NCBI GenBank assembly: GCA_963706795.1
Contig: OY970170.1
Span: forward strand, 1,110,001-1,142,000
DNA length: 32,000 nt
Source: Candidatus Saccharimonadota bacterium
GTDB taxonomy: Bacteria > Patescibacteriota > Gracilibacteria > BD1-5 > UBA2023
Direction: 5' to 3'
In this document: positions 1 through 32,000 of the stretch, piece by piece
Layout: each line of letters opens with the position of its first letter
Position numbering within the stretch: position 1 is the stretch's first letter
The notes under the pieces: model-generated
What the model was told of the DNA's origin: nothing
The model's database searches: none
What the model saw: only the letters and a program-made list of their open reading frames with translations
Position numbers and translations under genes: made by a program

Positions 1-260
1 AGTCAAAAATTCTCAATCTGACCGTAGTCATAAAACATATCACCAATACCAATTCCATTCTCATTGACGATAGCTTCTGCGGTATCTGGTGCGTTGTTTT
101 CGATCAGCAAATATACTCCTGCAAGTATAACAACTACGACCGAGAGTGCGTAGATTTGTGTCAAAAATCCCCAAATGGCGAGTGAGACAGTAGCGATACC
201 TGCGACGAGATACCAGCCTGCTCAGTGGTCGTGTTTTGTGGCGATGATCCAGTTGAACAT
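1..260 (-). CDS. hypothetical membrane protein, C-terminally truncated by the window edge (MFNWIIATKHDHGAGWYLVAGIATVSLAIWGFLTQIYALSVVVVILAGVYLLIENN...)
   Basis: ATG at complement 258-260 overlaps the TAA of the upstream gene as TAATG. The frame stays open to position 1 in code 25, with two in-frame TGAs. Two hydrophobic helices. Absent from the ORF track because of the TGAs. Confidence 0.45.
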
Positions 261-601
261 TAGAGATTGTCGATTACAAAACGGATAATAAACCATCCAG
301 AAACCGAGAGCACAAAGCCGGTGATACCTGCAGTGATGATCTTTTTACCGGTTTCTTTGTCATTAGAGAGTGAGCCAAGACCCATGCGGACTGCGCCGTA
401 AATGATCATGACCACTGCTACTGTACCAGAGAGGCCGAGTATATAGTTGGTAATATTGATGATGATATTGGGAATATCATTAAATCAGACCTCTCCATTG
501 CGGAGCTTGTCATCAGAGACACCAATCCAATTGCTTGCGGCGAAGGCCTGAGATACCCCAAGGTTCGTGATCGCAAAGAGTGAGAAAAGAAAACGCTTCA
601 T
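260..601 (-). CDS. small secreted membrane protein, T4SS-pilin-like (TrbC/VirB2-like), 113 aa
   Basis: ATG at complement 599-601, TAA at 260-262, one in-frame TGA at 485-487. Signal peptide MKRFLFSLFAITNLGVSQAFA followed by two hydrophobic helices (ILGLSGTVAVVMIIYGAV, ITAGITGFVLSVSGWFIIRFVI), the layout of CPR T4SS-pilin family proteins. Invisible in the standard-code track. Confidence 0.5.
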
Positions 602-641
602 GGAGGCATTATAGAGACATTACGTACTTTCCCAAGTCTTC

Positions 642-669
642 TTGGAAAAAGTTGTGAGTTGTCTATAAT
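642..669 (+). promoter_or_regulatory. candidate sigma70-type promoter for pheT (TTGGAA-16 nt-TATAAT)
   Basis: Hexamers read directly at 642-647 and 664-669, 23 nt upstream of the pheT ATG, in the divergent intergenic region. Confidence 0.35.
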
Positions 670-692
670 ACGCCAAAACTTCACTACATTTT

Positions 693-3137
693 ATGAAACT
701 TCCGCTTTCATGGATCGGCGTTTTTGCGTCGGTTGAAAATCCTCTTGCCACGCATGGCGCTAAAGAACTCGCGCATATCTACTCGACCCATACTTCCGAA
801 ATCGAAGGCTATGAAGCATTTGGCGACTACGATAAAGTGGTTGTTGGTCGCGTTATTTCGACTGAGCGACATCCCGAATCCACCAAACTCTGGATCACAA
901 AAGTGGATCTTGGAAAGCATGGTGAAGAGACGATTTTGACCGGAGCTCAAAATATTCCTGATGCAAAATACGTGCCAGTTGCAATGGTGGGCGCAGCACT
1001 TTCACCAGATTTTGTTATTACAGAGCGCAAAATGGCTGGCATGATCAGCCGTGGAATGATCTGTGGTGCCGACGAAATCGGACTCTCAAAGCAGGTGTCT
1101 ACAGGTATCATGATCCTCGAAGAATTCTTTGAAGAATCTATTCTTGCCAAGCAGCTTGGTGAAAATCTCTTTGATCTCGAAGTTGCGATCCCTGATATCG
1201 CAGGTGGGTCAAAGATGATCAAAATCAGCGGTACCGGATTTGAAATCGACAACAAGAGCGTGACTAACCGCCCCGATCTCTTTGGAATCCTGGGTCATGC
1301 ACGCGAATTTGCAACTCTCTTTGATCTCGAATTCACGGCACCAAAATACCCACTTGAAGCCCTTCCTGCTGGTAATCTGCCAACCGAAGTACTCTCTAAA
1401 AATGTGCTCTCGTACCATCTTATGAAGATTGAAGGGGTTACGCCGAAGCCTTCACCGCTTGGAATTTCTCTCATGCTTGAGCAGAGTGGACATCAGACTC
1501 GACTTGATCTTGTGGATATCACGAACTACCTCATGACCGAGCTTGGTCAGCCAATGCACGTATTTGATGCGGATAAGGTCGATGGTCACATCATTGTTCG
1601 TCAGGCCCAAAAAGGCGAGACACTCGTAGCACTCGACGGTAAAACCTATACATTCGAATCATCTGATCTTGTGATCGCAGATCAAAAAAAGGTTCTTGCG
1701 ATTGCCGGTGTTATGGGCGGGATGGATTCTGGAGTTACAGAATCTACACAAAATATCTATTTTGAATCCGCAGTCTTCGATCCTACTGCGATTCGTCTCA
1801 CAGCACAGAGACTCGCTATTCGTACGGATGCCTCAACTCGCTACGAAAAATCGCTCGATCCAATGATGAGCAAACAGGCACTCGCTCGAGCAATTCAGTT
1901 GATGACATTTTTGGGTCAAAAAAGTACGATTTCTGGCACTTCCTACTATCTCGACGAAACCCGAGTAAAAAAGATTGAGCTTACAGTAGCCGTAGAGTTC
2001 ATCCGTAATAAACTCTGAAAAGACATCTCAGAAACTGAGATGATCCATACTCTCACTAAGCTCGGATTTGATCCGAAGCTCTCGAATGGTGTTATTGCAG
2101 TTACTGTTCCTTCATGGCGAGCGACAAAGGATATCTCACTCAATGAGGATATCGTCGAGGAAATCGGACGTATCCATGGATATGATGAGATCGATGAGCG
2201 ACCAATTCCAGGACTCTTTGATATTTCGAAGCGCAATTACTGGACTGAATTCCGTGCCATCACCCAGGATTATTTTGCGGGCAAGGCCCTCTACGAAGCC
2301 TTCAACTATTCATTTTCTAATGAAGCGAAGGATCGAGGAATTCTCATTGAAAACTTCGATGATGCGGTGCGTATAAAAAATGCAGTGAGTGAAGAATTTA
2401 CGCTCATGCGTCGATTTATGGCACCACTTCTCCTTATTAATGCTCGAGAAAACCGTAAGCAGTCTCAAAAATTCGGATTTTTCGAAATCGCAAAAATCCA
2501 TACGAAACATGCAGAGAATGATTTTTCGGAGAGCAAAAGAGTTGCTGGAATTTTGATTGGTTCGGATATCCAAGATCTCAGAAATCTCATCGATGGATAT
2601 TTTGCGCAGACTACTTCTGCTGATCTTGCTTGGAAAATAGAGCAGGGTGTCACGGATACGACTCCGTATTTTCATCCAAATAAATCAGGTCGCTACATGC
2701 TAGGTGATGACTGTATTGCGACATTTGGATATATTCATCCGCGTGTCCTCACTAACTTTGATCTCACTGGTGAAGAAGTTGTATTCTTTGATATCGACGC
2801 CGAAAAACTTGCTGCACTTGCGCGCAAAAAATCGGTTGCGTATCGCGAACCTTCAAAATTCCCAAGCATTTCGCGTGAACTGAATTTTGTTCTTCCTGAT
2901 CGTGAAAACACTGGAAATATTGCCCGCGCGATAGCCGCTGTTGATCCTCGCATCTCTTCACCAAAAGTTGTTGATACCTATATAGATGAGACAAAAGTGG
3001 GGGTTGGCAAAAAATCTGTAACCTTCTCATTTATGATCGAAGATCGTACAAAAACGATCACCGATGAAGAAGCAGGGGAGATCCAATCACGTGTTATTTC
3101 TGGACTCGCAGAAAAGGGATATATGCTTCGTAGCTAA
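693..3137 (+). CDS. pheT: phenylalanine--tRNA ligase beta subunit, 814 aa
   Basis: Track ORFs 693-2018 and 2040-3137 are in the same frame and joined through TGA 2019-2021 (IRNKL-G-KDISETEMIHTLTKLGF, B5-domain context). N-terminal tRNA-binding domain (MKLPLSWI...HPESTKLWITKVDLG), B3/4 region and C-terminal anticodon-binding-like domain. Confidence 0.93.
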
Positions 3138-3145
3138 TTGATATA

Positions 3146-3208: not shown

Positions 3209-5452
3209 ATGAGTCATGCAGCCAGCGCCATAGTTCCGTTGCCAACTACGGATTATACTGCCGTCGATCGTATCGTCGACGATATTATTAGTGTGGTTAT
3301 TGCCTATATGGATGGCATTTCGCACGACTTTATTAGATCCGAAATTCGAAAGGCCTACATATTCGCGCGCGATGCTCACGAAGGTCAAATGCGCAAATCG
3401 GGCGATCCCTATATCATCCATCCAGTAGAAACCGCCAAGATTCTCACTATTTTGAAGCCCGATATTATCACTCTCCAGTGTGCATTTTTGCATGATGTTG
3501 CTGAAGATACGGAAAAAACAGTTCAAGATATTGAAAACGTCTTTGGTCCCGAGGTTGCGCACATCGTCTCTGGGATGGAAAAACTCTCCAAAGTAAAATA
3601 CCGCTGAGAGGAGCGCTCGATTGGAAGTATGCGTAAAATGTTCGTAGCTATGAGCGAGGACATTCGTCTCATCCTCGTAAAATTTGCAGACCGCATCCAC
3701 AATATGCGTACGCTCGATCATCATCCAGATCCCGAAAAGCGCCGTCGTATTGCACTGGAAACCCTCAATATCTATGCACCAATCGCTGATCGCTTGGGTA
3801 TATTTGATTTTAAAGAAATGCTCGAAACAGAGTGTTTCCGTATTTTGTTTCCGGATGATTTTGCGCGTATTACACGTGAACTTGCCGAGCTTTCGGACGA
3901 GCAAAATATCTTTTTGCATGAAGCGAAGCACATGCTTCTGGAGTTTATTCCTGAGCATATTGCGATCTACGAAATTTCCTCACGTATCAAGTCGCCATAC
4001 AGCATCTATAAAAAAATGATGCGTAAGGAATATGATCATGTAAATGATCTTTATGATCTTTTTGCACTGCGCGTTATTACCGAAACGATTCCTCAGTGTT
4101 ATGAACTTTTGGGATTGATACACAATCACTACACGCCGGTTCCACGTCGGCTCAAGGACTATATCGCTCTTCCAAAGCCAAACGGATATCAGTCGATCCA
4201 CATCACGATTTTGTGAATGCTGCAAGATCATCGCAGACTTCCGACGGAGATCCAGATCAGAACACTTGCCATGCACAAGCAAGCCGAAATCTGAGTTGCT
4301 GCACATTTTGAATATTCTGAAACCGGTAAATCTGAGTTTGCTAAGGATATTTATTGGGTAAATGAGCTCAAAGAACTTCTCGCGACCACGGCCGACGGCG
4401 AGCTGATTTTTGAGATGAAAACGAATGTATTTGATGATCGTATCTTTATCTTTACACCGAAGGGTGCGGTTATCAATCTACCAAAAGAATCAACACCGAT
4501 AGATTTCGCATATGCGATACATTCGGAGCTTGGTAACCAACTTGCTATCGCCAAGGTCAATGGGAAGGTTGCACCGCTTGATTCGGTCCTTCATAATGGA
4601 GATCGAGTTGAGATCGTTACCGAAAAAAACAAAGGCCCATCTGTGACATGGCTCTCGTTCATTAAAACCTCGCGTGCAAAAGAAGTTATCCGCTCACAGA
4701 TCAATCGCGAGCAACGAGAAATGCTCATCGAGCGCGGACGCTTTGTGCTCTCGAGCTATCTTGAGAAACATTTTGGGAAGGGGCTCGACAAGGATCTCAC
4801 CATCCTCAAGCACGTAGATGGCCGACTCCTCGATACTAAAGGCAAAGAAGAAATCCTCCTTCAGATTGGAAACCTCTCTCGTAAACCTGGCTCAGTCGTC
4901 AGAGCGATCGAGTGAATCGTCCTACCGCCGATCAAGCAAGAAGAGCCTAAAAAGCCTCGTTCGCGTAAAGCAGCAACTCCAGAGGCTGTCGAACATCCAT
5001 TTGGTGAACTGATTATTGGTGGCCAACCAGGAATCCCACATCGTTTTGCGAAGTGCTGTAGTCCAGCACCAGGAGATCGTGTGGTTGGATACATCAATAA
5101 AATGGGCGTAAATATCCATAAAGTTGCCTGTGCTTCGATCAAAAATGGAAGCCTCGATCGTCTCATTCCGGCAAATTGGTCCAATATTCCGGTTCAATCA
5201 TCGAAGCTTCGCATCGAGATCCTTGTCGAAAATCGTCTCGGTGTACTGCGCAAACTCACAGATATTTTTTATCTCATGCGTATCAATATCGATGAGATTG
5301 CCCAAAAAACTGAGAGCAATGGTGAGCTCGCAAGACTCTATCTCTTGCTCTCGATGGATGAAGACGATTACTATCTCTATGATCGTCTGATTGAGCGAGT
5401 TAAGCTCTCTGTACCCGAATATCGCAATTCTTCACTGGTTGAGATTACATAA
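3209..5452 (+). CDS. rel: bifunctional (p)ppGpp synthetase/hydrolase, RelA/SpoT homolog, 747 aa
   Basis: Four same-frame track ORFs (3209-3607, 3629-4216, 4415-4915, 5081-5452) joined through TGAs at 3605, 4214, 4292 and 4913. HD domain (FLHDVAEDT), synthetase motifs (ADRIHNMRTL, YQSIHITI, IQIRTLAMHKQAEI-G-VAAHF), TGS domain and C-terminal ACT-like domain. Confidence 0.93.
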
Positions 5453-5454: not shown

Positions 5455-5479
5455 AGGACCTCGTTGGAGGTCTTTTTTA
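5455..5479. terminator. rho-independent hairpin between convergent rel and tatD
   Basis: AGGACCTC-gttg-GAGGTCT followed by TTTTTT. The T-run overlaps the tatD stop codon. Confidence 0.7.
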
Positions 5480-6316
5480 TGTAATCTGGTAAAATCGGAG
5501 ACTATTCTCAAATACGATTTTTTCGACGATATCTGCTGGTTCGCTTCTGAGCTCTTTGAGTTTGTCGAGAACGTATTTGGTGTATGCAGGCTCATTTGCT
5601 TCTCATCTCTTGGGTACTGGCGTCAAAAATGGCGCATCTGTCTCGACCAGTATTCGATCTAGTGGAATCTTGCTTGCGGCTTCCTGGATAAGAGGTGCGT
5701 TTTTATAAGTCAGAATTCCAGAAAAACTAAAATATATTTGGTCCGAAAATTCAAGAAGAGACTTTGCAAAATCCCAGTTTTCGGAGAAGCAGTGGATCAC
5801 GCAATAACGTACGTCATATTTTTTGATATATGCGATCGTGTCATCTGCTGCATCTCGTGAATGAATGACGAGTGGTAACCCAAATTCTCGTCCGAGATCT
5901 GCTTGTTTTTTAAACCAAAAATACTGCTCTGATCTTTGTTCTGCCTCTTTTCATGTCTCAAGGTAGTGATAATCCAGTCCTGTTTCTCAGATCGCAACAA
6001 TCTGTGCTCGATTGTCTATGATGAGATTTCGCATAGCTTCGTAGATGTCCTCTGGATTTTGCGGAAGGGAGATCTCACTTTCACTCGAACGTACTTTTTG
6101 AGTGTTGGGATCTTGGGCATCCACTGGATGAAATCCTACCGTTGCATAAAAATGCTCATATTTATGAGCGAGTGCGATTGCAGATTGCGAGCTCGCAATA
6201 TCACATCCAATCTGTACCGAATGAGTCACTCAGAGCGCCTTCATATTTGCTAAAATCTCCGACTCGCGGGGAGCTAGAGTATCAAAATAGATATGCGAAT
6301 GGGTATCAAATATCAT
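5477..6316 (-). CDS. tatD: TatD-family metal-dependent hydrolase/DNase, 279 aa
   Basis: Starts MIFDTHSHIYFD. In-frame TGAs at 6230, 5987, 5951 and 5603 fall in KAL-G-VTH, AI-G-ETGLDY, LET-G-KEA and PKR-G-EANEPAY. Also VIHSRDA and VETDAPFL motifs. Unites track ORFs 5603-5800 and 5987-6229. Confidence 0.9.
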
Positions 6317-6651
6317 TAGTACACGCGGGTTCAGAGTGGAACTTCTTGGTCGGGTTTGAGTAGGATAACTCATCCTTCGCTATCAACACCAGTCACAAGT
6401 ACTTCCGAAATAAATGGTCCAATCTGGCGCGGTGGGAGATTAGTAACGGCAATCACCAGCCTATCCATGAGCTCCAAAGGCGCATATTTTTGTGTGATCT
6501 GAGCGCTCGAGCGTTTAGTGCCAATCTCGGGACCAAAATCGAGAGTGAGCTTATATGCGGGTTTTCGTGCTTCGGGAAAAGACTCAACCGCTATGATGCG
6601 ACCGACTCGTAATTCGACAGAAAAGAAAACCTCAGGATCAATAGTGCTCAT
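6316..6651 (-). CDS. csaA: tRNA-binding domain protein, CsaA/EMAP-like, 111 aa
   Basis: Near-colinear with my remembered B. subtilis CsaA (RVGRIIAVESFPEARKPAYKLTLDFGPEIGTKRSSAQIT...PPRQIGPFISEVLV). Extends past TGA 6370 and TGA 6331 (EVPL-G-TRVY) to TAA 6316-6318, which overlaps the tatD ATG as TAATG. ATG at 6651 preferred over the track's TTG at 6669. Confidence 0.85.
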
Positions 6652-6705: not shown

Positions 6706-7359
6706 ATGCGACTCAAAAATCGAGCCGAGATCACTGAGATTATCCAAACTGTCGAATCCCTCTACGGCTGAACGGTGATTGAACTCGATTATTCAACGCC
6801 ATTTCAACTCCTCATGGCGGTTATTCTTTCGGCGCAAACTACTGATAAGCAGGTCAATCGTATCACTCCGCCGCTTTTTAAAAAAGTGCGGGAGCCTCAG
6901 GATATGCTCGCACTTGAACTTGATGAGATCATGGAGTATCTCAAATACGTCAATTACTACCGCAATAAATCAAAATTTGTGTATGGCTGCGCTATAAAAC
7001 TCGTAGAAGAATTCGACGGAATTATCCCCAATGATCTCACTACACTGATGACCTTCCCATGAGTTGGGATCAAGACAGCAAAGGTTGTACTCTCTGTTTT
7101 ATATGATGCGCCGTATGTCGGTGTAGATACACATATTCATCGTGTTTGTAACCGAATATGACTCGTTCGAACTACCACGCCTGAGGCAACAGATAAGGCT
7201 ATTGTAGAACGTCTCACCCTCGAGCAGCGCGTAGGAATGCACCACCCATTTGTCCTCTTTGGTCGCTATCACTGTACGGCGCGTAGTCCAAAATGTGACA
7301 CCTGCAAACTCCAAAAACTCTGTAATTATTATCAAGAAGCTTTCAAAAAAGCACAATAA
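6706..7359 (+). CDS. nth: endonuclease III (DNA-(apurinic/apyrimidinic site) lyase), 217 aa
   Basis: ATG 6706. TGAs at 6769, 7060 and 7159 give the HhH-GPD motif TFP-G-VGIKTAKVVL and NRI-G-LV. C-terminal 4Fe-4S motif CTARSPKCDTCKLQKLC (C-x6-C-x2-C-x5-C). TAA 7357-7359. Confidence 0.92.
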
Positions 7360-7705: not shown

Positions 7706-8080
7706 CTAGGTCAAAAGATCTGCGAGAATGGATTCGAATGCTTTTCGATCATTTTTGCCAATATGGACCTCGCCGATTTCGTGGGCAATTCGGTTACGAA
7801 GTTTGTGGAGTCTCCAGACTTCTTGGATGTCAGAGAGGATGCGAGGTTGTTTTTTGAGTTGGTCGGCCACGGTTCAGGTATAGCCGTAATCTGTGAGAAT
7901 ATGCGCGAGAATTTTGTCGTATTCCATAATCGCTTCGCGATCCGAGAGATTTTGGACGCGCGTAAGTTTGTTACGATAGTATTCTTTTTTGGACTGCGTA
8001 AGTGATTTCTTGCGAGAGAATCGAAACGCGAGAAAAAAGACTCAGAGAATGAGCAATATAATAATTGCGAGACCGAACAT
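7706..8080 (-). CDS. small membrane-anchored protein with C-terminal Rx4H (HEPN-like) motif, 124 aa
   Basis: ATG at complement 8078-8080, TAG at 7706-7708, two in-frame TGAs. N-terminal TM helix MFGLAIIILLILGVFFLAF, then a helical region ending WRLHKLRNRIAHEIGE. Not in the ORF track. The track ORF 7763-8005(+) is its antisense shadow. Confidence 0.5.
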
Positions 8081-8097
8081 TTGCATACAATGAGTAT

Positions 8098-9639
8098 ATG
8101 AAATTTTTAAAAAAATCCGCTTTCCTTCTTGGGATTTTGTTTGTGCTTTTTCCGTGCTCGATTTTTGCGCATCCGCTCGATATTTCTTCGTCGACTCTCA
8201 CTCTTCATGATCAGGAAATTGACGGGATAACCTATCTGCATCCAAGCGAAGTTGAGGCGATTTTGGGACGCAGGGGATTGTCGATGCGAGCTCTTACGTA
8301 TGGGGATTATTATACGTACAAACAATATCTTTTTGATTATTTGATCACAAAAGTCCGTATTCAGTCATGAGATGCGAGTTGTACGCTGAGTAATTTTTCG
8401 ACGACGGATTTGGGGGTCGATGAAATCTTTACGTCAGGTTTTCCGGTCCGATATCGCGTTAAGTGTCCAGCGAAGATTGATGGCTTCTCGTTGCATGTTG
8501 AGATTTTTAGTGAGCTTCCACTGCAGACAAATCGCGTACTGTTATATGATGGCAAAACAGGGAATACTATTCTCTATAAGGTCTTTACGGCGAAGCAGAC
8601 CGAGTATGTCTATACACCAGGGGCACAGACTAAATTGGTAGATACTGATCATGATAGTCTCTCAGACGAAGAAGAAAAACTCTATCGAACCGATCCCACA
8701 AAAACCGACACCGACGGGGATTTTTATACTGACTACGAAGAAGTTATGTCCGGTTGGAATCCGCTCTCTAAAAGTCCATCACCATGACAGAATCTTCGTA
8801 TTGCGCCTTCAGATAAACCCTTCTCGCTTCCGACGAATATAACGCAGTCATGAGACGGAATGGCACCTGGCTCATATGAGCAAAATACTGATGCATGATC
8901 CGGTGGGACTCTTACGCTCGCGAGTTCGGATACCACGCTCTTTACACTCTTTAAAAAGATCCTTGGGCAAATAGACGGACTTCGTAGTGGGAAGGCTGAT
9001 ACACAGGTTGTCTTTTTTATTTTGGCACTTTTGGTAATGCTTGGCTTTTTACATGCGCTCGGGCCTGGCCACTCGAAGGGATTTTTGGTTGGATATATTT
9101 TGGCGGAATGAGCGAGTGTCGGATCAAGTCTTATGTATGCTCTGATCTTTACACTCATTCATCTCGCTGATATCGTGATTATTACGCTTCTCGCGAAGTT
9201 CGCATTTGCGTATTTTGATCCGACACAGTTTTTGGAACAGATCGAATTTTTTGGAGCGCTGGGGCTTTTGTGTCTGTCGCTTGTACTTTTTTTTGCAGCA
9301 GTAAGGCTTATTCGGAAGCAAAAAAAGATTGGACTCGAGCGAACGAAGCCTTCTAAAAAGGGACTCTGGATCGCATTTTTTGCAGGATTGGCGCCCTGTA
9401 CTTTTGCATGGAGTATTGTGCTTGTACTCTTTGCTATTGGGCAGATGCAGTACGCGTTGCCTTTTTTGCTCGCGCTGTGAACGGGTGTCTTTTTGTGTCT
9501 CGGAACTCTTGCACTCATCACACATAAAGTCCGAGATCGGATTTACGGACTCAATGGCAGTATTGCGTATTATTCGCCGCTTGTTTCGTCGGTTTTTATT
9601 TTTACACTTTCGGTATTTTTCTTGATACGATTCCTCTAG
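8098..9639 (+). CDS. NicO/RcnA-like nickel/cobalt transporter fused to an N-terminal extracytoplasmic domain with thrombospondin-type-3-like Asp-rich repeats, 513 aa
   Basis: One frame unites track ORFs 8065-8370, 8410-8787 and 9133-9480 through 6 TGAs. Signal peptide MKFLKKSAFLLGILFVLFPCSIFA. Asp-rich stretch DTDHDSLSDEEEKLYRTDPTKTDTDGDFYTDYEE. NicO signature LHALGPGHSKGF followed by multiple TM helices. TAG 9637-9639. Confidence 0.7.
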
Positions 9640-20543: not shown

Positions 20544-20618
20544 TGGCAGCCCCAGTAGGAATCGAACCTACCTCGCAGGATTTGGAGTCCTGAATTCTAG
20601 CCGATGAAATATGGGGCT
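20544..20618 (-). tRNA. trnW: tRNA-Trp, anticodon CCA, 75 nt with encoded 3' CCA
   Basis: Hand-folded cloverleaf: acceptor AGCCCCA/TGGGGCT, anticodon stem CAGGA/TCCTG with loop CTCCAAA, T arm GTAGG-TTCGATT-CCTAC, discriminator G, GG in the D-loop. The D-stem has one T-T mismatch. Confidence 0.85.
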
Positions 20619-20645
20619 ATAGAAGGGGCGAACCCCTTCAATGTG

Positions 20646-20825: not shown

Positions 20826-20826
20826 A

Positions 20827-21615: not shown

Positions 21616-21632
21616 GGTATGTGAGGTTATTA

Positions 21633-21968
21633 TTTAGAATATTTTGTAATGAGGTCCACGATGAGTCGGACGATGCCGAGCATGTAGGATTCTCATTGGT
21701 AGGCCTTGTATGATGTCCAGCCTGCAATAATGAGGTAGAGGAACATACCAAAGCCAGAGCTTCCATCTATTGGAAGGAAGCTCATGACGATCAGGATGAA
21801 GAAAAACGCGAGTGCTTGTTTGAGATGAAACATCACAAATGCATCTTCGTTTTTGTGCAGTAAATAGGGAAGAACGAATCCAAAAGGAATGTAGCAGACC
21901 GCAGCAAGAACACGAAGTTCTTTGCTGGGGCCGGTGCTTTCTTCGAATATAGTCTGTTCGCTATTCAT
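21633..21968 (-). CDS. DUF4870-like small integral membrane protein, 111 aa
   Basis: LAAVCYIPFGFVLPYLLHKNEDAFVMFHLKQALAFFF pattern. Track ORF 21693-21968 extended through TGA 21693 to TAA 21633-21635. Confidence 0.6.
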
Positions 21969-21980
21969 GTGAGAAGAGAA

Positions 21981-22748: not shown

Positions 22749-22804
22749 AAGTGAGAGAAAAAAAAGAATAATCCTTGGTCCGATCCAGTGTTAAACTTTC
22801 GATG

Positions 22805-22829
22805 CCGAAGCCTTTCTCGAGGCTTTCGG
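22805..22829 (-). promoter_or_regulatory. stable hairpin in the rpsB 5' leader (possible autoregulatory element)
   Basis: CCGAAGCCT-6 nt-AGGCTTTCGG with one bulge, about 60-80 nt upstream of the rpsB ATG and downstream of the preceding terminator. Confidence 0.25.
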
Positions 22830-22842
22830 AGGAAGAAAGCGT

Positions 22843-22889
22843 AAAACAAAAAACCGGCTCTAAGCTCATTTTCCGAGCAGAGAGTCGGC
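22843..22889 (-). terminator. rho-independent terminator of the upstream ORFan pair
   Basis: On the minus strand, CCGACTCT..GCTC-loop-GAGC..AGAGCCGG followed by TTTTTTGTTTT. Confidence 0.65.
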
Positions 22890-22941
22890 CAAAGTATATG
22901 GAATTTGTGGAGAATGCAAGCCTTTTAAGCCTCTTTTTTGA

Positions 22942-23733
22942 CTAGAGTTCTATGTGGATAATGGCAACATATGGATTTGAATCCTTAAATGCATAATTAT
23001 CGAGATAAACCTGTGAGACTTTGTTTGGATCATATATAACTACGGCAGGTTTTTTATGAACCTCGGCATGTTCATCCGAGAGCGCATAGTAGAGTGGATT
23101 ATTGATGTTATCAGAGTCTACTAAAAATCCGGATTCGTCTGTTGCAAAAAATGTACCTGGATTATTTTTGCGTGAATAATGCTTTTTGCTTTTTGTATTC
23201 CCAAATCCGCTGTAAAGCAGATCTGAGCGATAAAATGGAAGCTTGCGCAATTCTTCTAAAAAGAGCTCACTTTCGTGTGTACTATCAAAAGCCTCATGCA
23301 GACTTATATTATAGGCTGGAATATCAAGAATTGCATCTGTATTGATCGGCTGGAGATTGACTCCCGCAAGAAGCAAGAGATTTATAAAAGAATTTAATTC
23401 AGTTTCTACTGCCTGTATGTCAGTTTGCGTAACGTGCGCATGAGGATGGGTGATATGAGCCTCAGCTAGCTTTCTAAAATCAGAGCCATGCGTGAGCATG
23501 AGCGACTTAAAGGCATTGCCTATCTTGAGCATTTTTTTTGCGTACGATTGATCAAGCAATTCATTGCGAGTACTGAGCATTTCTGCTGTTTTGCAGGCCG
23601 CATTGATGGATCAGAGATATTGCAGAGGATCCTTCATAAAACCTTTAATAACGGCTTTTGCTTCTGTTTCAGAGAGAGCTAGTTTTTTGCTTGGAATGAG
23701 TACTTTGTTTTCGGATTGATCAGGTGTGTGCAT
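22942..23733 (-). CDS. hypothetical protein, 263 aa (ORFan)
   Basis: Track ORF 22942-23580 extended upstream through one TGA to ATG 23733 (MHTPDQSENKVLIPSKKLALSETEAKAV...). Ends with TAG 22942-22944. Starts 8 nt after the upstream gene's stop. No motif recognised. Confidence 0.6.
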
Positions 23734-23741
23734 TTTTGTGC

Positions 23742-25154
23742 TTATAATTGAGTATTATTTGATTGCTGGCGATTTGCATTTCATCTCGTGGCTACGAGTT
23801 CGATATGATTGCCAAGACGATCTGAGGATTTGTTCGGAGACATTTCATAAACCTTGAGCCAGTCAAGCAGTCCATGATAGGCATGAAGCGGATTATTATG
23901 TGAAGCTGCAAAATACTGCATCATCACAGAAGTAGTCACTTTCGGGTCATTTTCCAATGCCTTTTGAAGCGTTGGAAGCGGGTGAGTGATGAGTTCCTTT
24001 TGACGAGTTACCATCTTTTTCCCAACTTTTTGCTGCACGGGAATATAGAGAATATTGTTCTCCGGAAGCAGGCGAATTGTATTCGCAATATTATGAATTG
24101 CGAGCAAATATGCGGCCTTGTGATGATTTTCGGGAGAGAAGTTTTCGATATTCGAATCCCCAAGAATTTTATTATTCGCAAATACACGATCGGCAGTTAC
24201 TGCGCCTGCTTCGCTTCATTCTTTATTGCGTCAGCCGACGGACATTTTGGTGTGCTGGTAATTACCAAAAGAGACATACGGATCTCAGAGTGCCGGAATA
24301 TGCGCAAGGTATTCAACGCCTGCTTTTTGTAGCAGAAGATCGTAGAGCTTTTTATTAAAATTGCCGCCCATTTGGTCCATGATTTCGGTCATGGAGAGCT
24401 CTATGAGCTCTTTTGCTCTGATCTTTTGAATGAGTTTTTTGGCAAGAAGCCTTTTATGAGGATTTTCGAGTTTGTAGGGTGGCTTTGCAAGACCATTCTC
24501 GATATCGAGTTTTGATTGCATGGCTGCGATTTCTCCATTGATACCTGTCTCAAATTGCTCAATTGTCATCTGTTTCCACGGAGTTTTACTCTCAATTACT
24601 GGTAGGATTCTAGCAGTATAAAATTCTCGCAATACAGGATTTCGTGATTCGAATCGCTTGAGTTTTTCTTCCCAGAGTTCTCTGAGATTTTCGCGGAAAT
24701 TTATCTCGGGATTCATTCCTTCGAGTGTGATCGCTTTTTCTTTGTTTTTGAGAAGCTTTTGATAGAGCACATGAGACTCTTTTTTGTCGTCGGGTAGATT
24801 GCTCAGAGCTTTCCATGCTTCTTTGTCTTTTGGAGCTGTAAAAGTTGTAAAAGGTGCGACTCGATCTTTGTTTGTTCAAAAGAGAAGTTTACGCGTCATA
24901 GTCTCGCTCCCAATAACATTTTGTTGCGACCCAAGCTCTCGGAGATCGAGTTTTTGCGCTTTATTTGTTTGGATAGCCTTGATTTCGGATTTGAGATCTG
25001 ACTGTGCTTTTCGGGCGTCGTGGCTCACAAAAAGCTTTTTCACTCTACAACTAGCACGAGCCATAATGCCGTCTATGGTCGCGCAATCTTCGGGAAGCGG
25101 TCGTGGAGTTTCGACTACGGGAGTCGGCTTTTCAAGGAGGTCTCTTTGACTCAT
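23742..25154 (-). CDS. hypothetical protein, 470 aa (ORFan)
   Basis: Track ORFs 24876-25154, 24285-24770 and 23781-24107 share one frame and are joined by 5 TGAs. ATG 25154, TAA 23742-23744. No signal peptide or TM segment. No motif recognised. Confidence 0.6.
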
Positions 25155-25198
25155 GTTCGAAGTTTAGCACATGCGCTATTTTGGAGCAAAAATCCGCG

Positions 25199-25226
25199 TT
25201 GAAAAACCATCAAGCTTGTGTACTAT
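25199..25226 (+). promoter_or_regulatory. candidate promoter for gatB (TTGAAA-16 nt-TACTAT)
   Basis: Hexamers at 25199-25204 and 25221-25226, about 30 nt upstream of ATG 25258. Confidence 0.35.
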
Positions 25227-25257
25227 GAAGCCTTCTCGGAGAATATTCATCAAAATT

Positions 25258-26688
25258 ATGTCCAAATACGAAATTGTCATGGGGCTCGAAACTCATGTCC
25301 GAATCAAATCTGCTACAAAGATGTTCTGTGGTTGTGCCAATGCGATCGAACTCGCTGATGAGCCAAATACCAATGTTTGTCCGGTATGTATGGGAATGCC
25401 TGGAATGCTTCCGGTTCTCACAGCTGGCGTAACGGATCTCGCGGTTCGCGCGTCGCACTCGCTTCGTATGACTGTAAATCAAAAATCGGTTTTTGATCGT
25501 AAGAGTTATTTTTATCCGGACCTTCCACAGGGATTTCAGATCACCCAGCTCTATCATCCAATTGCAGAACACGGTACTGTCACTACTTTTGTGGCTGGAG
25601 TCTCCAAGACTTTTCGCGTAAATCGTCTCCATATTGAGACGGATGCCGGCAAACTCGTTCATGCTGGTACAAAAACTCTCTGTGACTACAACCGTGCTGG
25701 ATCACCACTCATGGAAATCGTAACAGAGCCTGATTTTAGAGCTAAAGATGAAGTAATCGCCTATCTCGAAGAGCTCCAAAAACTCATGCGTTGGTCAGGA
25801 GCGTCTGATGCCGACATGGAAAAGGGGCAACTTCGATGTGACGTTAATATCTCGCTTCGTCCTATTGGTTCAACTGAACTTCGTAATCGCGTTGAGCTTA
25901 AAAATATCAACTCGTTCTCATCGATCGGACGCGCCATCGATGTGGAGTTTGCTCGCCAAGAAGAAATCTATGAAGCAGGTGGCACTGTCACTCAAGAAAC
26001 TCGTGGCTGGGATGATGAACACGGAGAGAGTCACTCAATGCGTTCCAAAGAAGACGCTATGGATTATCGATATTTCCCTGAGCCCGACCTCCCGCCTCTA
26101 GTGATTACTCCCGAGTATATTTCAGAGCGCCAAATTGGTGAGCTCCCAATCGATCGTCGTATGAAATATCTTGGTGAATGGAAACTCCAAGAAGACGATG
26201 CTCGAATACTCAGCAATGACCGCGTACTCTCGGATTACTACGAGTCGCTCGTTGCGCTCACGGATGATCCAAAGAAATCGTGTTCGTATATTACGACTAT
26301 TCTCTTCGGTCTCTTCGAAGAAGCACAAGAAGCAGTCGATCTTGGAACGCTCAGATTTGATATCAAAGAACTTGCCGAAGTCATCAAACTCGTCAATGCA
26401 GATGGGCTCTCAAGCACTAATGCAAAAACAGTAGTTTCTGAACTCTTCAAAAATGGCGGATCAACTGGTGTAATCGTTGATAAACTTGGTCTTCGCCAAG
26501 TAAATGACACTGGTGCACTCGAAGCCGTCGTTGACGGTGTGATTACTGCAAATCCCGCACAGGCTACTGAATACCAAGCTGGTAAAGTACAGCTCTTCGG
26601 TTACCTCGTTGGTCAATGTATGAAGGAATCTAAAGGACAAGGAAACCCAAAGATATTTACAGAAATGCTTAAGAAAAAGCTTGGATAA
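25258..26688 (+). CDS. gatB: Asp/Glu-tRNA(Asn/Gln) amidotransferase subunit B, 476 aa
   Basis: MSKYEIVMGLETHVRI, CPVCMGMPGMLPVL, HIETDAGKL and YRYFPEPDLPPL motifs. Start trimmed from the track's 25171 to ATG 25258. No TGA. Confidence 0.95.
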   Translation: MSKYEIVMGLETHVRIKSATKMFCGCANAIELADEPNTNVCPVCMGMPGMLPVLTAGVTDLAVRASHSLRMTVNQKSVFDRKSYFYPDLPQGFQITQLYHPIAEHGTVTTFVAGVSKTFRVNRLHIETDAGKLVHAGTKTLCDYNRAGSPLMEIVTEPDFRAKDEVIAYLEELQKLMRWSGASDADMEKGQLRCDVNISLRPIGSTELRNRVELKNINSFSSIGRAIDVEFARQEEIYEAGGTVTQETRGWDDEHGESHSMRSKEDAMDYRYFPEPDLPPLVITPEYISERQIGELPIDRRMKYLGEWKLQEDDARILSNDRVLSDYYESLVALTDDPKKSCSYITTILFGLFEEAQEAVDLGTLRFDIKELAEVIKLVNADGLSSTNAKTVVSELFKNGGSTGVIVDKLGLRQVNDTGALEAVVDGVITANPAQATEYQAGKVQLFGYLVGQCMKESKGQGNPKIFTEMLKKKLG

Positions 26689-26721
26689 TAAAAAACACCC
26701 GATTGATCGGGTGTTTTTTTA
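26689..26721. terminator. bidirectional rho-independent terminator between gatB and map
   Basis: CACCCGA-ttga-TCGGGTG flanked by AAAAAA and TTTTTTT. Confidence 0.8.
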
Positions 26722-26728
26722 GTGTAAA

Positions 26729-27532
26729 TTACAAGAATTTCTTTGTTGCTGTGAGAACTTCGTGACCGGTTTCGGTAACGAGGATCGTGTGTTCGAATTG
26801 TGCAGAGAGCGAGCCGTCTTTGGTACGGACTGTCCAGTCATCGTCCATGAGTCTGGTTTTGTAGCCACCAGCATTGATCATTGGCTCAATCGTAAAGATC
26901 ATACCTGGAACCATCTTGTGTCCAGAGTTCTTGAGTGCCTTGTGGTAAATAACCGGCTCGTCTTCATGGAAGAGTACGCCAACACCATGTCCTGTATATT
27001 CACGGACTACTCAATATCCCTGCCCTTCTGCAAATTTTGAGATCTCGTAACCGATATTGCCCGTAAAATTCCCAGGATAGACCTGTGTAATACCGAGATC
27101 GAGACACTTCTTGGTGATCTCAATGAGGGCGAGAGCTTTGGGGCTCGTCGTTCAGACGATATACATGCGGGACGCATCGCCAAAATATCCATCGTAGATC
27201 GTAGTGACATCAATATTGAGGATATCTCATTCTTTAAGAATCTCATCCTTGCGAGGTATTCCGTGGCAGATGACGTCATTAACGGAGATGCAATTGTATT
27301 TTGGGTATCCGCCCTTTGACCAATTGTTATTGCCGAGATAGTCGATACATGCCGAAGTTCCACCCTGCGAGAGCATAAAATTGTTCGCAATGTGGTCGAG
27401 TTCTTCGGTAGAGATACCTTCTTTGACGTATTCTCCGATCATATCGAGAACGGCTCCTGTAATCGCCGAGGCTTTACGGACTCACTCTATTTGTTCTGGC
27501 GTTTTAATAACAACACCCTTTGGTTTTTTCAT
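26729..27532 (-). CDS. map: type I methionine aminopeptidase, 267 aa
   Basis: MKKPKGVVIKTPEQIE-G-VRKA, ILKE-G-DILNIDV, MYIV-G-TTS, GY-G-VVREYTGHGVG, FTIEPMIN, QFEHTILVT. 4 in-frame TGAs unite track ORFs 27227-27442 and 26729-26914. Confidence 0.92.
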
Positions 27533-27555
27533 GGTTTTTTAAAATCAACTCGGGA

Positions 27556-28023
27556 TTATATCTCTGTGGCGAGAATTCCAAATTCTTTTTGAAGTGTCTG
27601 GAGGATATATTGCTCGTGTTCCCACATAATTTCGTATTCTTCCTCGGTTTCATGATCAAATCCTTGGAGATGGAGAAGTCCGTGCGTCAGGAGGCGGTAG
27701 ACTTCTTCGGTAGGCGTATGTCCAAAGGTTGTTGCCTGCTCGAGGATCTTGGTTTCAGAGAAGAGAATTTCGCCAAAAACCTCGTCCGGACGTATCACAT
27801 CAGCAGTTCCAAAATAATGAAACGAGAGCACATCTGTATTCGAATCAATCTCACGATAGGTCCGATTGAGTTCTCGCATGCGCTCGTCGGGTATTACTGC
27901 AACATTTACAATCCCCATCTGCTCTATTCCTGTGGTTTGTAAGAGTGCGTCAATGATGACGGTCATAACATCTTCCTCGAGTGGGAGATTGTTTGGGAAG
28001 TCGATTACTTGAAGTGAATACAT
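27556..28023 (-). CDS. ybeY: rRNA maturation endoribonuclease YbeY, 155 aa
   Basis: Zinc motif THGLLHLQGFDH. Start trimmed to ATG 28023, which overlaps the upstream TAA as TAATG. Confidence 0.9.
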   Translation of the reverse strand: MYSLQVIDFPNNLPLEEDVMTVIIDALLQTTGIEQMGIVNVAVIPDERMRELNRTYREIDSNTDVLSFHYFGTADVIRPDEVFGEILFSETKILEQATTFGHTPTEEVYRLLTHGLLHLQGFDHETEEEYEIMWEHEQYILQTLQKEFGILATEI

Positions 28024-30356
28024 TATTTGAAATCTACATTGTAATTTTGAAGTCCAGGCTGTTTGAGGAAAACTGGCTTCATTGCGCAATTTGCCGGTGT
28101 GGATTCGTAGTCGAATTTTATCTCCGAATTTTCGAGTACTTTAGTATTGGTTGTAAAATCTATACTCGTGTAATCTGGTTGACTGTCATCGGTTGTCACT
28201 GAGACATTTGCGTGTGATTTGAGTTTAGATCCTTTTGGTACGAGGAGTCGAACGTATTCGACATTTTCGCCGTTTCCTTGGACGAATAACTCATGCTCGT
28301 GTGTTTTGGGATCTATATTGTAGCTATAGAGCATGCGACGTATCATCTCACGTGTTCCAATATCAAAATTGTGCGAGGTTTTGAGGCTGAATGTATTAAG
28401 CATTGTACAGCCGGCGACTGACTTGGCAGTGAGCTCAAAATTGCGGTGTACATACCGATCAGATTTATTCCCTGAGAGTGAAGTAAATACTGGATATACA
28501 AAATTATCTCTTCGCCCCTTGTAGGCATCATCCGGTATAAATTTGTGGATGAATGTGTCGAGATCGCCATCTCGGTGGGCTACGAGGATTTCACCCGCTG
28601 CAACATTGCTCTCGAGTGCATCAAGATAACGCGTGTATTCGCCAGTTTCACGAAGCTTTGATTCGAATGCTTCAATAAATGTAAAAAGTATGTCTTTTGC
28701 GCTCGTTTTGCGATTGATTTGTCACTCAACAAGTACCGAGAGAATGAGTGAAAAATTATCACTCGTGACAGTTTCTTTAATACCAGGAACCGTTATCGGT
28801 CCAGTAATACTCAGGAGATCGGTTATGAAGCCCTGATTGATTGCGACGATACCATCGAGTGTTCCACCGCCAGATTTTTCGTACATGCGTGAGATCGTCT
28901 CAAAACTCTCCTTAAAATTTGGATAGTAGTTGGCATCACGCATTCCATAGACATCCGTGATCTTATCAATACCAGGTGGCGGCGTTTCTCCATATGGGAA
29001 GAGTCGCCAGTCATAAAAATAGATGTCCTTTTTTTCGTATGACTGTAATCGCCCCTTATAAAACACGAGTTCTACCGCGCTTCATGGAAATCCTCCATTC
29101 GCGCGAAGTTCGTCACGGTTTTGGTTGAGGATGAGATAGTGTTTTGGGGTTTTGTCACCAAGCAGTGCAAAAATCTCATTTTGGTGTGCGAGTGTGAAAT
29201 CGAGTGTGCGCTCTATACTCTCAAGGAAGTGTACAGCTTTTGTGAGTTTTTCTTCCTTTGCAGGATCTCCGAGATTTTGGATAGAGCTAAATTCTATGAC
29301 AGATTTTTTGAGGCTATCACGAATGATGCCAAGATTTTTTGCACGCGCCTCAAATATATCCGTGAGCGGAAGCAAATTTGCCGCTAAAAGCCGTGGATCC
29401 GTGTAGGTAAGTGCACTTCATGAATTGGTATGTACTCATGTAGCAAGCTCATTGCGAAGTGTATCGAGCTCAGCAAATGCCTCGAGTAAGGCCTTTCAGC
29501 CATGGATAGCATGGGCAGCATTATCGAGATTTTCGCTGCGTGCGACTCAGGCGCGGATGAGGATATCGAGTGGCAAAAAAAGAAGATCTGCCTTTTGGAA
29601 TTCGGTTTGAAGTGAGGCGATCTCGTTTGAAATTGCCACTGGATCCTTCATTTCTTTGAGCGCAATGAGACGGCTATATCCGTCCATAGTGATCGTTTTG
29701 ACGCTATTTGCTAGAAGCCCAAGAAGTACGATTGCTATAATCGCTCAGAGCGCGAACCCAGAGCTGACTTTGAGAACTTTTTTCCCATGTTTTCTGCGAA
29801 AACGTCTAATACGCCTAGAGAGAGGCAGATCGAGCGCATAAATATCCGGACGAAGCCGCTTAAGGTCATGAAGCTCCAGCGTGCGAACATCGACTGCCGT
29901 ATCTGGAAAATCTGGCAGAGCAGGGTAGAGGTCAATCACTGGTAAGCGCGGAGAGAACGCCTTCCTCGAAAATGACGAAAGAAGTGTCGGCGCAAAAACC
30001 TGTGATCCATAGAGATCAAAAAGTCTTGAAGTTGGATGATTTTTGACTGAGAGAGTGAGTTTTTGACTGAGATTTACAGGCACAAAAGGCTCGACTCGCA
30101 TGTCATTCCAAACCCTGTGAGGATTGTGATTGATCGCAATAGTCTCACGAAAAGGGAAATGTACCGTGACATCAATAATCGGAGGAATACCCGAATCAAT
30201 ACTGAGGTCATTTAAAAAACCAGCGGGTTCAATCGGTGGAAGTTCTTCGTCTAGCGTTTCCTCGTGCTCATCGTGGCCGTGTGCGTCATGCTCATTGTGG
30301 CCAGAGTGCTCATCGTGGGCGTCGTGACTTGCGTGATCGGAGTGATCGTGTGACAT
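28023..30356 (-). CDS. DUF4012 domain membrane protein with His/Asp/Glu-rich cytoplasmic N-terminus, 777 aa
   Basis: Track ORFs 29745-30395, 29082-29375, 28722-29066 and 28023-28403 share one frame and are joined by about 7 TGAs. N-terminus MSHDHSDHASHDAHDEHSGHNEHDAHGHDEHEE. One TM helix (GFAL-G-AIIAIVLLGLLANSV). DUF4012 signature LILNQNRDELRANGGFP-G-SAVEL. ATG 30356 preferred over the track's GTG at 30395. Confidence 0.78.
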
Positions 30357-30383
30357 CTCGCTTGCGCTTCGGGGGTGACTTTT

Positions 30384-30401
30384 TATACTGTGCACAGTAT
30401 A
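30384..30401. promoter_or_regulatory. 18-bp perfect palindrome TATACTGTGCACAGTATA in the divergent promoter region (candidate operator)
   Basis: Checked base by base. It lies in the 72-bp gap between ATG 30356(-) and ATG 30429(+), and overlaps a TTGCGC-16 nt-TATACT promoter-like pair for the plus-strand gene. Confidence 0.5.
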
Positions 30402-30428
30402 TATACGCCGTTCACTTTTCGAAATTCA

Positions 30429-31616
30429 ATGCAGAAAAATACTTTTACGTGTCCACACTGTGGCGGAGCGATTGATCTCGGTCAGATCGAAGAGCATCAA
30501 ATTGCGGAGCGGCTCAAGGAGCGCGAGGCACAACTCGAAAAAGATATCAGCCTCAGAGCTAAAAACTATTACGAAAAACAAGCGACCGATGAGCGTAAAA
30601 AAATGGAAGAAGATCAAAAAAAATCTGCCATTGAACTCGAAATGCTCAAAAAACGCGACGAAGAAGCTCGTAAACGCGAGCTCGATTTTATGCGCGAGAA
30701 AGCCCTTCTCGAAAGCAAACAAAAGGATCTCGAGCTCGAAAAAGAACGCGCCATCATCGAGGCTCGAAAGGTCATGGAAGCTGAAATGGCTGAGCGAATC
30801 AAAAAAGAACAGGCTCTTCAATTTGAGCGCATCGAGCTCGATTTTGCTAAAAAGCTCCAAGAAAAAGACAAACAAATCGAGCAGGTCCAGCGCTCTCTCG
30901 AGGAGGTTAATCGCAAGGCGAGCCAAGGTTCTATGCAGATCCAGGGTGATATCCAAGAAGATGCTCTGAGAGCAATTCTCATACGTGAATTTCCGTCAGA
31001 TATTGTTGATGACGTCCCAACAGGAATTAAATGAGCGGACCTTATCCAGAGTGTACGCACGCAGTTTGGTCACCATGTCGGAGTAATCGCATGGGAATCC
31101 AAAAATACCAAGGCATGGAGTGATAGTTGGGTCGACAAGCTCAAAGAAGATCGTCTCCGCGTCAATGCTGGAGTATCAGTGATTGTCTCAAGTGTATTAC
31201 CCGAATGAGTCAATCACTTTGGTCTCTACCGTGATATTTGGGTCACAGAATGGCACTATGTTCTTCCACTGACTATTGCACTTCGTGAACAGATGATCAG
31301 CATGGATCATTTGCGTAATTCTCTCGCTGGCAAAGACGAAAAAATGGAGGTTCTCTATGCGTATCTCACATCTACCGAGTTTCGCGACAAGATTCAAAAT
31401 ATTGTAGAGGCATTTACATCTATGAAGGACCAACTCGACCAAGAAAAGCGCGCCATGGAGCGCATCTGGGCCAATCGCGAAAAACAACTCGATCGCGTCA
31501 TCAGTAATACTGCACGTCTCTACGGTGACATGCAAGGCCTCATCGGAGCCAAACTCCAAGGTGTCGGGTACTTTGAGCTCGGAGCTTGAGAAGATATTTC
31601 AGAAGAAGAAAAGTAA
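30429..31616 (+). CDS. DUF2130 family protein (N-terminal CxxC, long coiled coil, C-terminal PD-(D/E)xK-like domain), 395 aa
   Basis: MQKNTFTCPHCGG, then about 170 aa of E/K/R-rich coiled coil, then QGDIQEDALRAILIREFPSDIVDDVPTGIK-G-ADLIQSV...GVIAWESKNTKAWSDSWVDKLKEDR...VIVSSVLPE-G-VNHF...LYAYLTSTEFRDKI. TGAs at 31032, 31206 and 31587. TAA 31614-31616. Confidence 0.75.
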
Positions 31617-31620
31617 CAAA

Positions 31621-31658
31621 CAAAAACTCACCAATCCTGGATTGGTGAGTTTTTGTTT
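31621..31658. terminator. bidirectional terminator between DUF2130 and mazF
   Basis: ACTCACCAAT-cctgg-ATTGGTGAGT flanked by AAAAA and TTTTGTTT. Confidence 0.8.
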
Positions 31659-31998
31659 ACGAGAGCGAGAAAGTAAGTTTTATTTTCTCTTCAATTTGTT
31701 TCTGAGTTTGTATGTCGTCTATATTTCCTATATATCCAGCTATTCTTGTCTCATCTATAACTCGAATTTGATGAAAAAGGATTTTAGACGCGGAATCAAG
31801 TCCGTAGTTTTTCCAGCTGCTTAAAATGAGACCCGTAGGTACATCAGTAAGGTTTGGAGTTAATGGAGCAACAATGTATAAACCAATATACTTACTAATA
31901 AAATCATTTTGGACTATAACACACGGACGAAGGCCTTGCTGTTCATGTCCCTTTACTGGGTCTAGATTCACCAGAATAATCTCAAAACGATTATGCAT
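31657..31998 (-). CDS. mazF: MazF/PemK-family type II toxin endoribonuclease, 113 aa
   Basis: FEIILVNLDPVKGHEQQGLRPCVIVQND...YIVAPLTPNL...HQIRVIDETRI matches the PemK pattern. Intact in the standard code. The expected upstream antitoxin would lie beyond position 32000. Confidence 0.85.
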   Translation of the reverse strand: MHNRFEIILVNLDPVKGHEQQGLRPCVIVQNDFISKYIGLYIVAPLTPNLTDVPTGLILSSWKNYGLDSASKILFHQIRVIDETRIAGYIGNIDDIQTQKQIEEKIKLTFSLS

Positions 31999-32000
31999 GC

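Follow-up and report, generated by a model that had tools for sequence, protein, structure and literature searches.

The stretch of DNA analyzed here, called the window, comprises 32,000 nt of contig OY970170.1 (positions 1,110,001–1,142,000 of the forward strand) and has a GC content of 0.44. The curated gene set consists of 29 protein-coding genes and one tRNA gene, with a coding density of 93.5% of the window (Table 1). The subject of this work is the codon TGA, which occurs in frame in most of these genes. With a probability of roughly 0.96, we assign the window to the chromosome of an uncultured Candidatus Gracilibacteria bacterium (Candidate Phyla Radiation (CPR)/Patescibacteria) that uses genetic code 25. 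Judged at the level of sequence, UGA would encode glycine in this organism and only UAA and UAG would serve as stops. The same assignment of TGA had been made in an earlier note on this DNA, and four independent lines of evidence support it: the residues of homologues, the codons of orthologues, Pfam scores, and the clade together with the tRNA(UCA) of a relative. The phenomenon itself is already known and is not new.

When the window was translated from stop to stop, open reading frames (ORFs) of at least 100 amino acids (aa) totaled 14,637 aa under the standard code and 33,430 aa once TGA was no longer a stop. The longest ORF grew from 506 aa to 1,792 aa, followed by ORFs of 1,057 and 822 aa. 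It encodes a DUF1800/DUF1501 fusion that is present only when TGA is read through. In a control, TAA or TAG was dropped as a stop instead, and the longest ORF then measured only 512 aa. The gain in ORF length is specific to TGA. Greedy picking of the longest ORFs with TAA and TAG as stops gave 103 TGAs, and 11 of the calls were antisense shadow ORFs. Therefore, the gene set was rebuilt frame by frame and checked against Pfam, with TGA translated as X and no residue presupposed.

The curated set holds 73 in-frame TGAs, close to the roughly 70 counted by hand in the earlier note, and they are spread over 22 of the 29 genes. As the note had stated, every gene ends in TAA (23 genes) or TAG (six genes), and neither codon occurs internally. 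TGA makes up 73 of the 685 glycine codons of the window (10.7%). The fragmentation of standard-code ORFs that the note described throughout the stretch is borne out: table 11 splits the 29 genes into 102 pieces with a median length of 74.5 aa, 44 of them shorter than 60 aa, and the interrupted genes include essential ones. The three to five TGAs that the note gave for tatD, nth, map, and the HI0933 gene were counted as 4, 3, 4, and 5, respectively. A fourth TGA in nth and a fifth in rel sit upstream of the likely starts. Pfam models run across the TGA sites over essentially their full length, namely, TatD (1–253 of 253, four TGAs), HI0933 (2–243 of 244, five TGAs), and Peptidase_M24 of the methionine aminopeptidase (MetAP; 2–208 of 208, four TGAs).

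Read-through of a TAA was suspected at one place, 18763–19560 on the reverse strand, where two ORFs (19132–19560 and 18763–19098) lie in the same frame with a single TAA between them. Downstream of the TAA come 11 codons and then an ATG, so the ORFs are two ordinary genes.

UGA is also a sense codon in code 4, where it encodes tryptophan. This code is used by Mycoplasmatales/Entomoplasmatales and by Hodgkinia, Nasuia, Zinderia, and Stammera, several of which are insect endosymbionts. These organisms resemble the one studied here in having UGA as a sense codon, reduced genomes, and, probably, an association with hosts. Were code 4 used here, TGA would be read as Trp by a tRNA-Trp(UCA) or by a tRNA-Trp(CCA) whose anticodon stem has only 4 bp, and a tRNA-Trp gene is indeed present in the window. 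Tables 4 and 25 give identical ORF boundaries, so the ORF lengths cannot separate Trp from Gly. The amino-acid composition does not discriminate either, with Trp at 0.67% as called and 1.4% under table 4, and Gly at 6.1% without TGA and 6.85% with it.

To identify the amino acid, the TGA-bearing proteins were aligned to PDB chains of standard-code organisms and to standard-code genomic homologues fetched via GatB. At the 30 TGA columns tabulated in this way, 55 of the 91 aligned residues are Gly, and none is Trp or Cys. Summed BLOSUM62 scores over the 20 amino acids place Gly first (+71.9) and Ser second (+6.5), with Cys at −70.4 and Trp, which ranks 18th, at −70.9. A tabulation of homologue columns had been outlined in the earlier note, and its result favors Gly over all other residues. 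Gly is the majority residue in 14 of the 30 columns; the other columns vary, with S, K, T, D, E, H, and further residues. An internal control with the same standard-code homologues gave a consistent picture: window TGA aligns with Gly in 65% of cases and window GGN in 55%, and window TGG aligns with Trp in 36% and with Gly in 0%.

The motifs quoted in the note are present as written (AEI-TGA-VAAHF, AI-TGA-ETGLDY, KR-TGA-EANEP, P-TGA-VGIKTA, IAII-TGA-G-TGA-AAG, KE-TGA-DIL, GY-TGA-VVREYTGHG, PL-TGA-TRV, PPSE-TGA-K, ANGGFP-TGA-S, and IK-TGA-AD). Its statement that TGA in conserved motifs stands for Gly holds for the motifs of Rel, TatD, Nth, MetAP, CsaA, and the flavoprotein, and about half of the tabulated columns are variable. 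TGA occupies invariant glycines in HTxxxG and AExGxAAHW of Rel, xGExGLD and RGxxNxP of TatD, LKxGD and IVG of MetAP, LPGVGxKTA of Nth, and PxGTK of CsaA. In the HI0933 flavoprotein, it occupies both glycines of GxGxxG as well as those of TGGxS and xGGV.

Individual codons were compared with homologous structures and sequences. Codons 336 and 362 of rel are Gly in the Rel/RelA proteins of B. subtilis, Mycobacterium, and E. coli (three of three species), and five Gracilibacteria orthologues have TGA or GGN there. Codons 128 and 254 of tatD are Gly in five of five aligned PDB chains, as is the P-TGA-VG site of nth (five of five chains, from three distinct enzymes). Codons 8, 10, 173, and 369 of the HI0933 gene are Gly in four of four PDB homologues and in the related locus L059, and codons 102 and 127 of map are Gly in E. 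coli MetAP and four genomic homologues. The sites singled out in the note for CsaA and MetAP fared differently: PL-TGA-T is Gly in three of three aligned CsaA structures, but the GY-TGA-VV site of MetAP is Ser in E. coli. The second csaA site, EG-TGA-V, is Asp or Arg in CsaA homologues, and PDB homologues of the PhnB/VOC protein have A, S, or G at its FW-TGA-A site. The sole PDB homologue of YaaA aligned over residues 67–178 only and covers none of the five TGA sites of this protein, PPSE-TGA-K included.

The Pfam scores were calculated with TGA translated as Gly, X, or Trp. In this order, they are 238.3, 229.6, and 228.3 bits for TatD; 242.1, 222.4, and 219.2 bits for HI0933; 168.1, 161.1, and 157.2 bits for Peptidase_M24; 201.3, 197.0, and 194.2 bits for DUF2130; and 76.6, 75.3, and 75.9 bits for HhH-GPD. 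The gain of Gly over Trp is +10.0, +22.9, +10.9, +7.1, and +0.7 bits, respectively. Matches to the FAD/NAD-binding and helix-hairpin-helix motifs were recovered only when Gly was substituted.

The codons of orthologues point in the same direction. In the orthologue alignments, window TGA stands opposite GGN in 31 cases, TGA in 14, other codons in 20, and TGG in none. Conversely, the TGA of relatives faces window GGN 222 times and TGG not once, and window TGG is found opposite neither TGA nor Gly. Single sites illustrate this: codon 442 of pheT faces GGA in the standard-code locus L038, codon 71 of the small membrane protein at 7706–8086 faces GGC in Peregrinibacteria (L020), four of the seven TGAs of the DUF4012 gene face GGT or GGA in the orthologue of L001, and the IK-TGA-AD site of the DUF2130 gene faces GGA in L001.

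The only tRNA that ARAGORN found in the window is a tRNA-Trp(CCA). An Rfam alignment shows A1:U72 and G73 in this tRNA and an anticodon stem of 5 bp (CAGGA/UCCUG). With this normal stem, it is not the 4-bp-stem variant that is able to read UGA as Trp. The variant is expected to be missing from organisms in which a stop was reassigned to Gly, where a normal 5-bp stem is expected (PMC13092985). A tRNA-Trp(UCA) is absent from the window. Taken with the missing Trp at the TGA columns, the missing TGA/TGG pairs, the lower score of Trp than Gly in five of five Pfam families, and a GxGxxG loop that could not be WGWAAG, code 4 is effectively refuted, and we regard it as extremely improbable.

A candidate decoder of UGA is seen in the relative L004, whose GatB is 67% identical to that of the window. 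Its tRNA(UCA) lies at 11100–11178 and is followed after 16 nt by a tRNA-Gly(GCC) (11100–11270 for the region). The acceptor stem of the tRNA(UCA) measures 7 bp and includes G1:C72, C2:G71, and G3:C70; the discriminator is U73, and the variable loop is short. This tRNA also has a bulged U in its anticodon stem and an encoded CCA. The combination of G1:C72, C2:G71, G3:C70, and U73 is the rule by which a tRNA(UCA) is classed as a glycine acceptor (Shulgina & Eddy, PMC8629427). By its predicted structure, the tRNA of L004 conforms to this rule and does not have the architecture of tRNA-Sec. In the organism studied here, UGA would then be read by a dedicated tRNA(UCA) carrying the same elements, which would be charged by GlyRS. 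RF2, which otherwise recognizes UGA, would be absent, and tRNA-Trp, keeping its CCA anticodon and 5-bp stem, would insert Trp at UGG alone. The first three of these steps are taken from the clade.

Under the standard code, the in-frame TGAs would have to be due to pseudogenization, errors of assembly or sequencing, selenocysteine, or programmed read-through. This is a formal possibility, and ARAGORN labels the tRNA(UCA) of L004 as ‘SeC’, a label that comes from the anticodon alone. However, the 7-bp acceptor stem and short variable loop of that tRNA are unlike tRNA-Sec, the residues aligned to TGA are Gly and not Cys, and the sites are too many and too broadly spread for selenocysteine. Pseudogenization would have struck 22 of 29 genes, essential ones included, with stops that are only TGA and never TAA or TAG. 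An independent Logan assembly (contig of 12.5 kb, ERR12037365; L081) is 100% identical to window positions 18653–31163 in reverse complement, and 14 TGA sites are kept as TGA in other species. The conservation of TGA sites and their specificity for Gly effectively refute the standard code, which we hold to be the most improbable of the readings weighed here.

GatB has no TGA in the window and can thus be used as a code-neutral probe for placement. The comparison covered 80 related loci, of which 17 are close relatives and 63 are more distant. GatB is 54–79% identical to that of the 17 close metagenome-assembled genomes (MAGs) and at most 45% identical to that of all other phyla. By title, 12 of the 17 are Candidatus Gracilibacteria; the other five have generic titles (Patescibacteria, Peribacteria, ‘uncultured bacterium’). 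This placement relies on the similarity of one marker and does not involve a tree. In-frame TGA occurs in the gatB of 16 of the 17 close relatives and of one distant locus, L078, and is absent from the other 62 distant loci. The fraction of DNA in long standard-code ORFs drops from about 0.8–1.1 to 0.02–0.5 for most of the scorable relatives; for L001 (0.74) and the GC-rich L008, this measure has no discriminating power.

Two of these loci deserve separate mention. L008 (JASDUA010000146.1; GatB 73% identical) is the close relative without TGA in gatB. Its GC content of 0.57 is above the range of 0.21–0.53 given for lineages with UGA = Gly in PMC8629427. We suspected that it had kept or regained the standard code. 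This was rejected: the genes of L008 have TAA or TAG as stops, and one that neighbors gatB has an in-frame TGA. L078 (CAUQDZ010000006.1, ‘uncultured bacterium’) has a GatB identity of 42%, a GC content of 0.35, and six in-frame TGAs in gatB, and its standard-code ORFs are collapsed. It probably represents another lineage with recoded UGA at a greater distance from the window, for example, Absconditabacteria.

UGA is known to encode Gly in Gracilibacteria/BD1-5 and Absconditabacteria (PMC4032931, PMC8629427, PMC13092985), which are placed in GTDB class JAEDAM01 (PMC13092985). For code 25 of Gracilibacteria (BD1-5/GN02) and Absconditabacteria (SR1), PMC8629427 cites Campbell et al. 2013 and Rinke et al. 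2013, and a BD1-5 bacterium was the subject of a proteomic study (Hanke et al. 2014, PMC4032931). The window shares with this clade in-frame UGA at conserved glycines, stops restricted to UAA and UAG, a position among Gracilibacteria MAGs, a relative with a tRNA(UCA) bearing Gly identity elements, and a canonical tRNA-Trp(CCA). Nothing qualitative sets it apart, and its GC content lies towards the high end of the range of 0.21–0.53 (PMC8629427).

Absconditabacteria additionally read CGA and CGG as Trp, and some Gracilibacteria read CGG as Trp (Shulgina & Eddy 2021, PMC8629427). This extended code of the sister clade has UGA = Gly in common with the window. In contrast, CGA is frequent in the window (106 per 10,000 codons) and stands for Arg: at the GatB columns with window CGA, Arg is found in 62 of 62 standard-code homologues. 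No support was found for CGG = Trp; the window has only 12 CGG codons, which makes this a weak test, and these face Arg codons of relatives and never TGG. A further reassignment of CGA or CGG to Trp is not supported, and since both codons stand opposite Arg, plain code 25 suffices. The close GatB matches and the CGA/CGG result favor Gracilibacteria over SR1, which sharpens the placement in the CPR given in the earlier note. An episymbiotic lifestyle would follow from the literature and not from the window itself.

Several points weigh against the assignment to code 25. Variable positions, which are uninformative either way, account for about half of the tabulated TGA columns. ARAGORN found no tRNA(UCA) in the 32-kb window. 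The decoding tRNA(UCA) and the loss of prfB are suggested by relatives and the literature; no prfB lies within the 32 kb either. Two nominal ‘Gracilibacteria’ retain UGA as a stop (PMC8629427). Clade membership alone is thus insufficient, and the evidence within the window decides. For this organism, the support comes from nucleotide and predicted protein sequences and not from proteins themselves (mass spectrometry).

The use of TGA is uneven among the genes of the window. The core translation genes pheT, gatB, tsf, and rpsB are nearly free of it (one TGA against 126 GGN), and the remaining genes have 72 TGA against 486 GGN (Fisher p = 4e-6). No TGA is found in ybeY, pemK, and the gene of the S4 protein either. 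The skew could mean that UGA encodes Gly but is not decoded cleanly. With residual termination or misreading as Trp, for which an ambiguous U34 wobble between UGA and UGG is one possible source (PMC8629427), the codon would be costly and selected out of highly expressed genes. However, TGA makes up as much as 85% of the glycine codons of gatB in AT-rich relatives, so it is not intrinsically barred from this gene. Furthermore, the skew was tested on four genes and may reflect a stronger conservation of ancestral GGN codons together with the higher GC content. We consider unclean decoding very unlikely.

The share of TGA among the glycine codons of gatB was compared for the ORFs of L001–L015, L044, L060, and the window. 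It ranges from 0 (window and L008) to 0.85 (L015, GC 0.25) and drops as the GC content of the locus rises (Spearman rho = −0.86, p = 5e-6). In the members with the highest AT content, TGA predominates among the glycine codons of gatB. Compared with these, the use of UGA in the window is low, as corresponds to its GC content at the high end. Mutational bias combined with codon conservation is a simpler reading of the scarcity in core genes than leaky or costly decoding. That UGA is established as a glycine codon yet kept out of the core, highly expressed translation genes of this relatively GC-rich lineage is doubtful, though far less remote than unclean decoding. If it holds, the clade would provide a natural series for measuring the spread of a captured stop codon. 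If the skew stems from selection and not from ancestral codon conservation, the decoding of UGA would still be costly, that is, slow, ambiguous, or leaky.

The biology has been established since 2013–2014, and the value of the present result is practical. A public protein look-up found the exact tsf protein on a 1,267,896-bp NCBI/ENA contig. For this genome, the public collection of 15 billion protein sequences contains only proteins without TGA and truncated table-11 fragments. Full-length translations of MetAP, HI0933, TatD, VOC, DUF2130, and others, made with either Gly or Trp, had no exact match in this collection. The public table-11 calls for this DNA give 71 aa for MetAP, 201 aa for DUF2130, and 114 aa for DUF4012, and the 71-aa MetAP is a ‘weak’ Peptidase_M24 fragment. 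With the wrong translation table, 29 genes thus become about 100 fragments, and domain matches are weakened or lost. Annotation, homology clustering, and structure prediction for the window must use table 25.

Table 1. Genes of the 32,000-nt window, with coordinates given from its first letter.
Feature	Position	Strand	Evidence	In-frame TGA
T4SS-pilin-like small membrane protein	260–601	-	PF18895 (E = 5.7e-10)	1
pheT (Phe-tRNA synthetase beta chain)	693–3137	+	Five PheRS-beta Pfam domains	1
rel (RelA/SpoT (p)ppGpp synthetase/hydrolase)	3209–5452	+	HD_4, RelA_SpoT, TGS, ACT domains	4
tatD-family hydrolase	5477–6373	-	PF01026 (1–253/253)	4
csaA-like tRNA-binding chaperone	6316–6651	-	PF01588	2
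nth (endonuclease III)	6706–7359	+	HhH-GPD and 4Fe-4S domain	3
Hypothetical small membrane protein	7706–8086	-	ORF	2
Hypothetical membrane protein	8098–9639	+	ORF; only sub-threshold TSP3 repeat match	6
DUF1800 + DUF1501 fusion, 1,782 aa	9693–15041	+	PF08811, PF07394	9
yaaA-like protein	15041–15709	+	PF03883 (E = 1.9e-33)	5
Hypothetical protein	15628–16329	+	ORF, no Pfam match	3
S4-domain RNA-binding protein	16307–16528	-	PF13275	0
Nucleotidyl transferase	16539–17402	-	PF00483	2
HI0933-like flavoprotein	17410–18714	-	PF03486 (2–243/244)	5, two within GxGxxG loop
Hypothetical protein	18763–19098	-	ORF, no Pfam match	2
Hypothetical protein	19132–19560	-	ORF	0
PhnB/VOC-family protein	19648–20082	+	PF06983, PF00903	2
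Hypothetical small protein	20171–20422	-	ORF	1
tRNA-Trp(CCA), canonical	20544–20618	-	ARAGORN; Rfam alignment	
tsf (EF-Ts)	20827–21615	-	PF00889	0
Small membrane protein	21630–21968	-		1, facing GGC in L001 and L008
rpsB (ribosomal protein S2)	21981–22748	-	PF00318	0
Hypothetical protein, 263 aa	22942–23733	-	ORF, no Pfam match	1
Hypothetical protein, 470 aa	23742–25154	-	ORF, no Pfam match	5
gatB	25258–26688	+	GatB_N, GatB_Yqey domains	0
map (methionine aminopeptidase)	26729–27532	-	PF00557 (2–208/208)	4
ybeY	27556–28023	-	PF02130	0
DUF4012 protein	28023–30356	-	PF13196	7
DUF2130 protein	30429–31616	+	PF09903	3
PemK/MazF-like toxin	31657–31998	-	PF02452	0

Some features of the gene inventory stand apart from the reading of TGA. 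The T4SS-pilin-like gene adjoins that of a second small membrane protein, which runs off the left end of the window (3–601 for both, reverse strand). None of the 80 related loci contains a homologue of either of the adjacent hypothetical proteins of 263 and 470 aa (22942–25154, reverse strand). The gene of the PemK/MazF-type toxin is complete and starts at the right edge of the window, and any antitoxin partner would lie outside it. The DUF1800/DUF1501 fusion has a signal-like N-terminal segment, Ser/Thr/Gly-rich repeats, and a tail rich in Pro, Lys, Thr, and Val. Its run of 22 glycines (14037–14102) is encoded by GGC, GGT, and GGA only and contains no TGA. His, Asp, and Glu are strikingly abundant at the N-terminus of the DUF4012 protein (MSHDHSDHASHDAHDEHSGHNEHDAHGHDEHEE; about 30255–30356, reverse strand), a composition that suggests metal binding.

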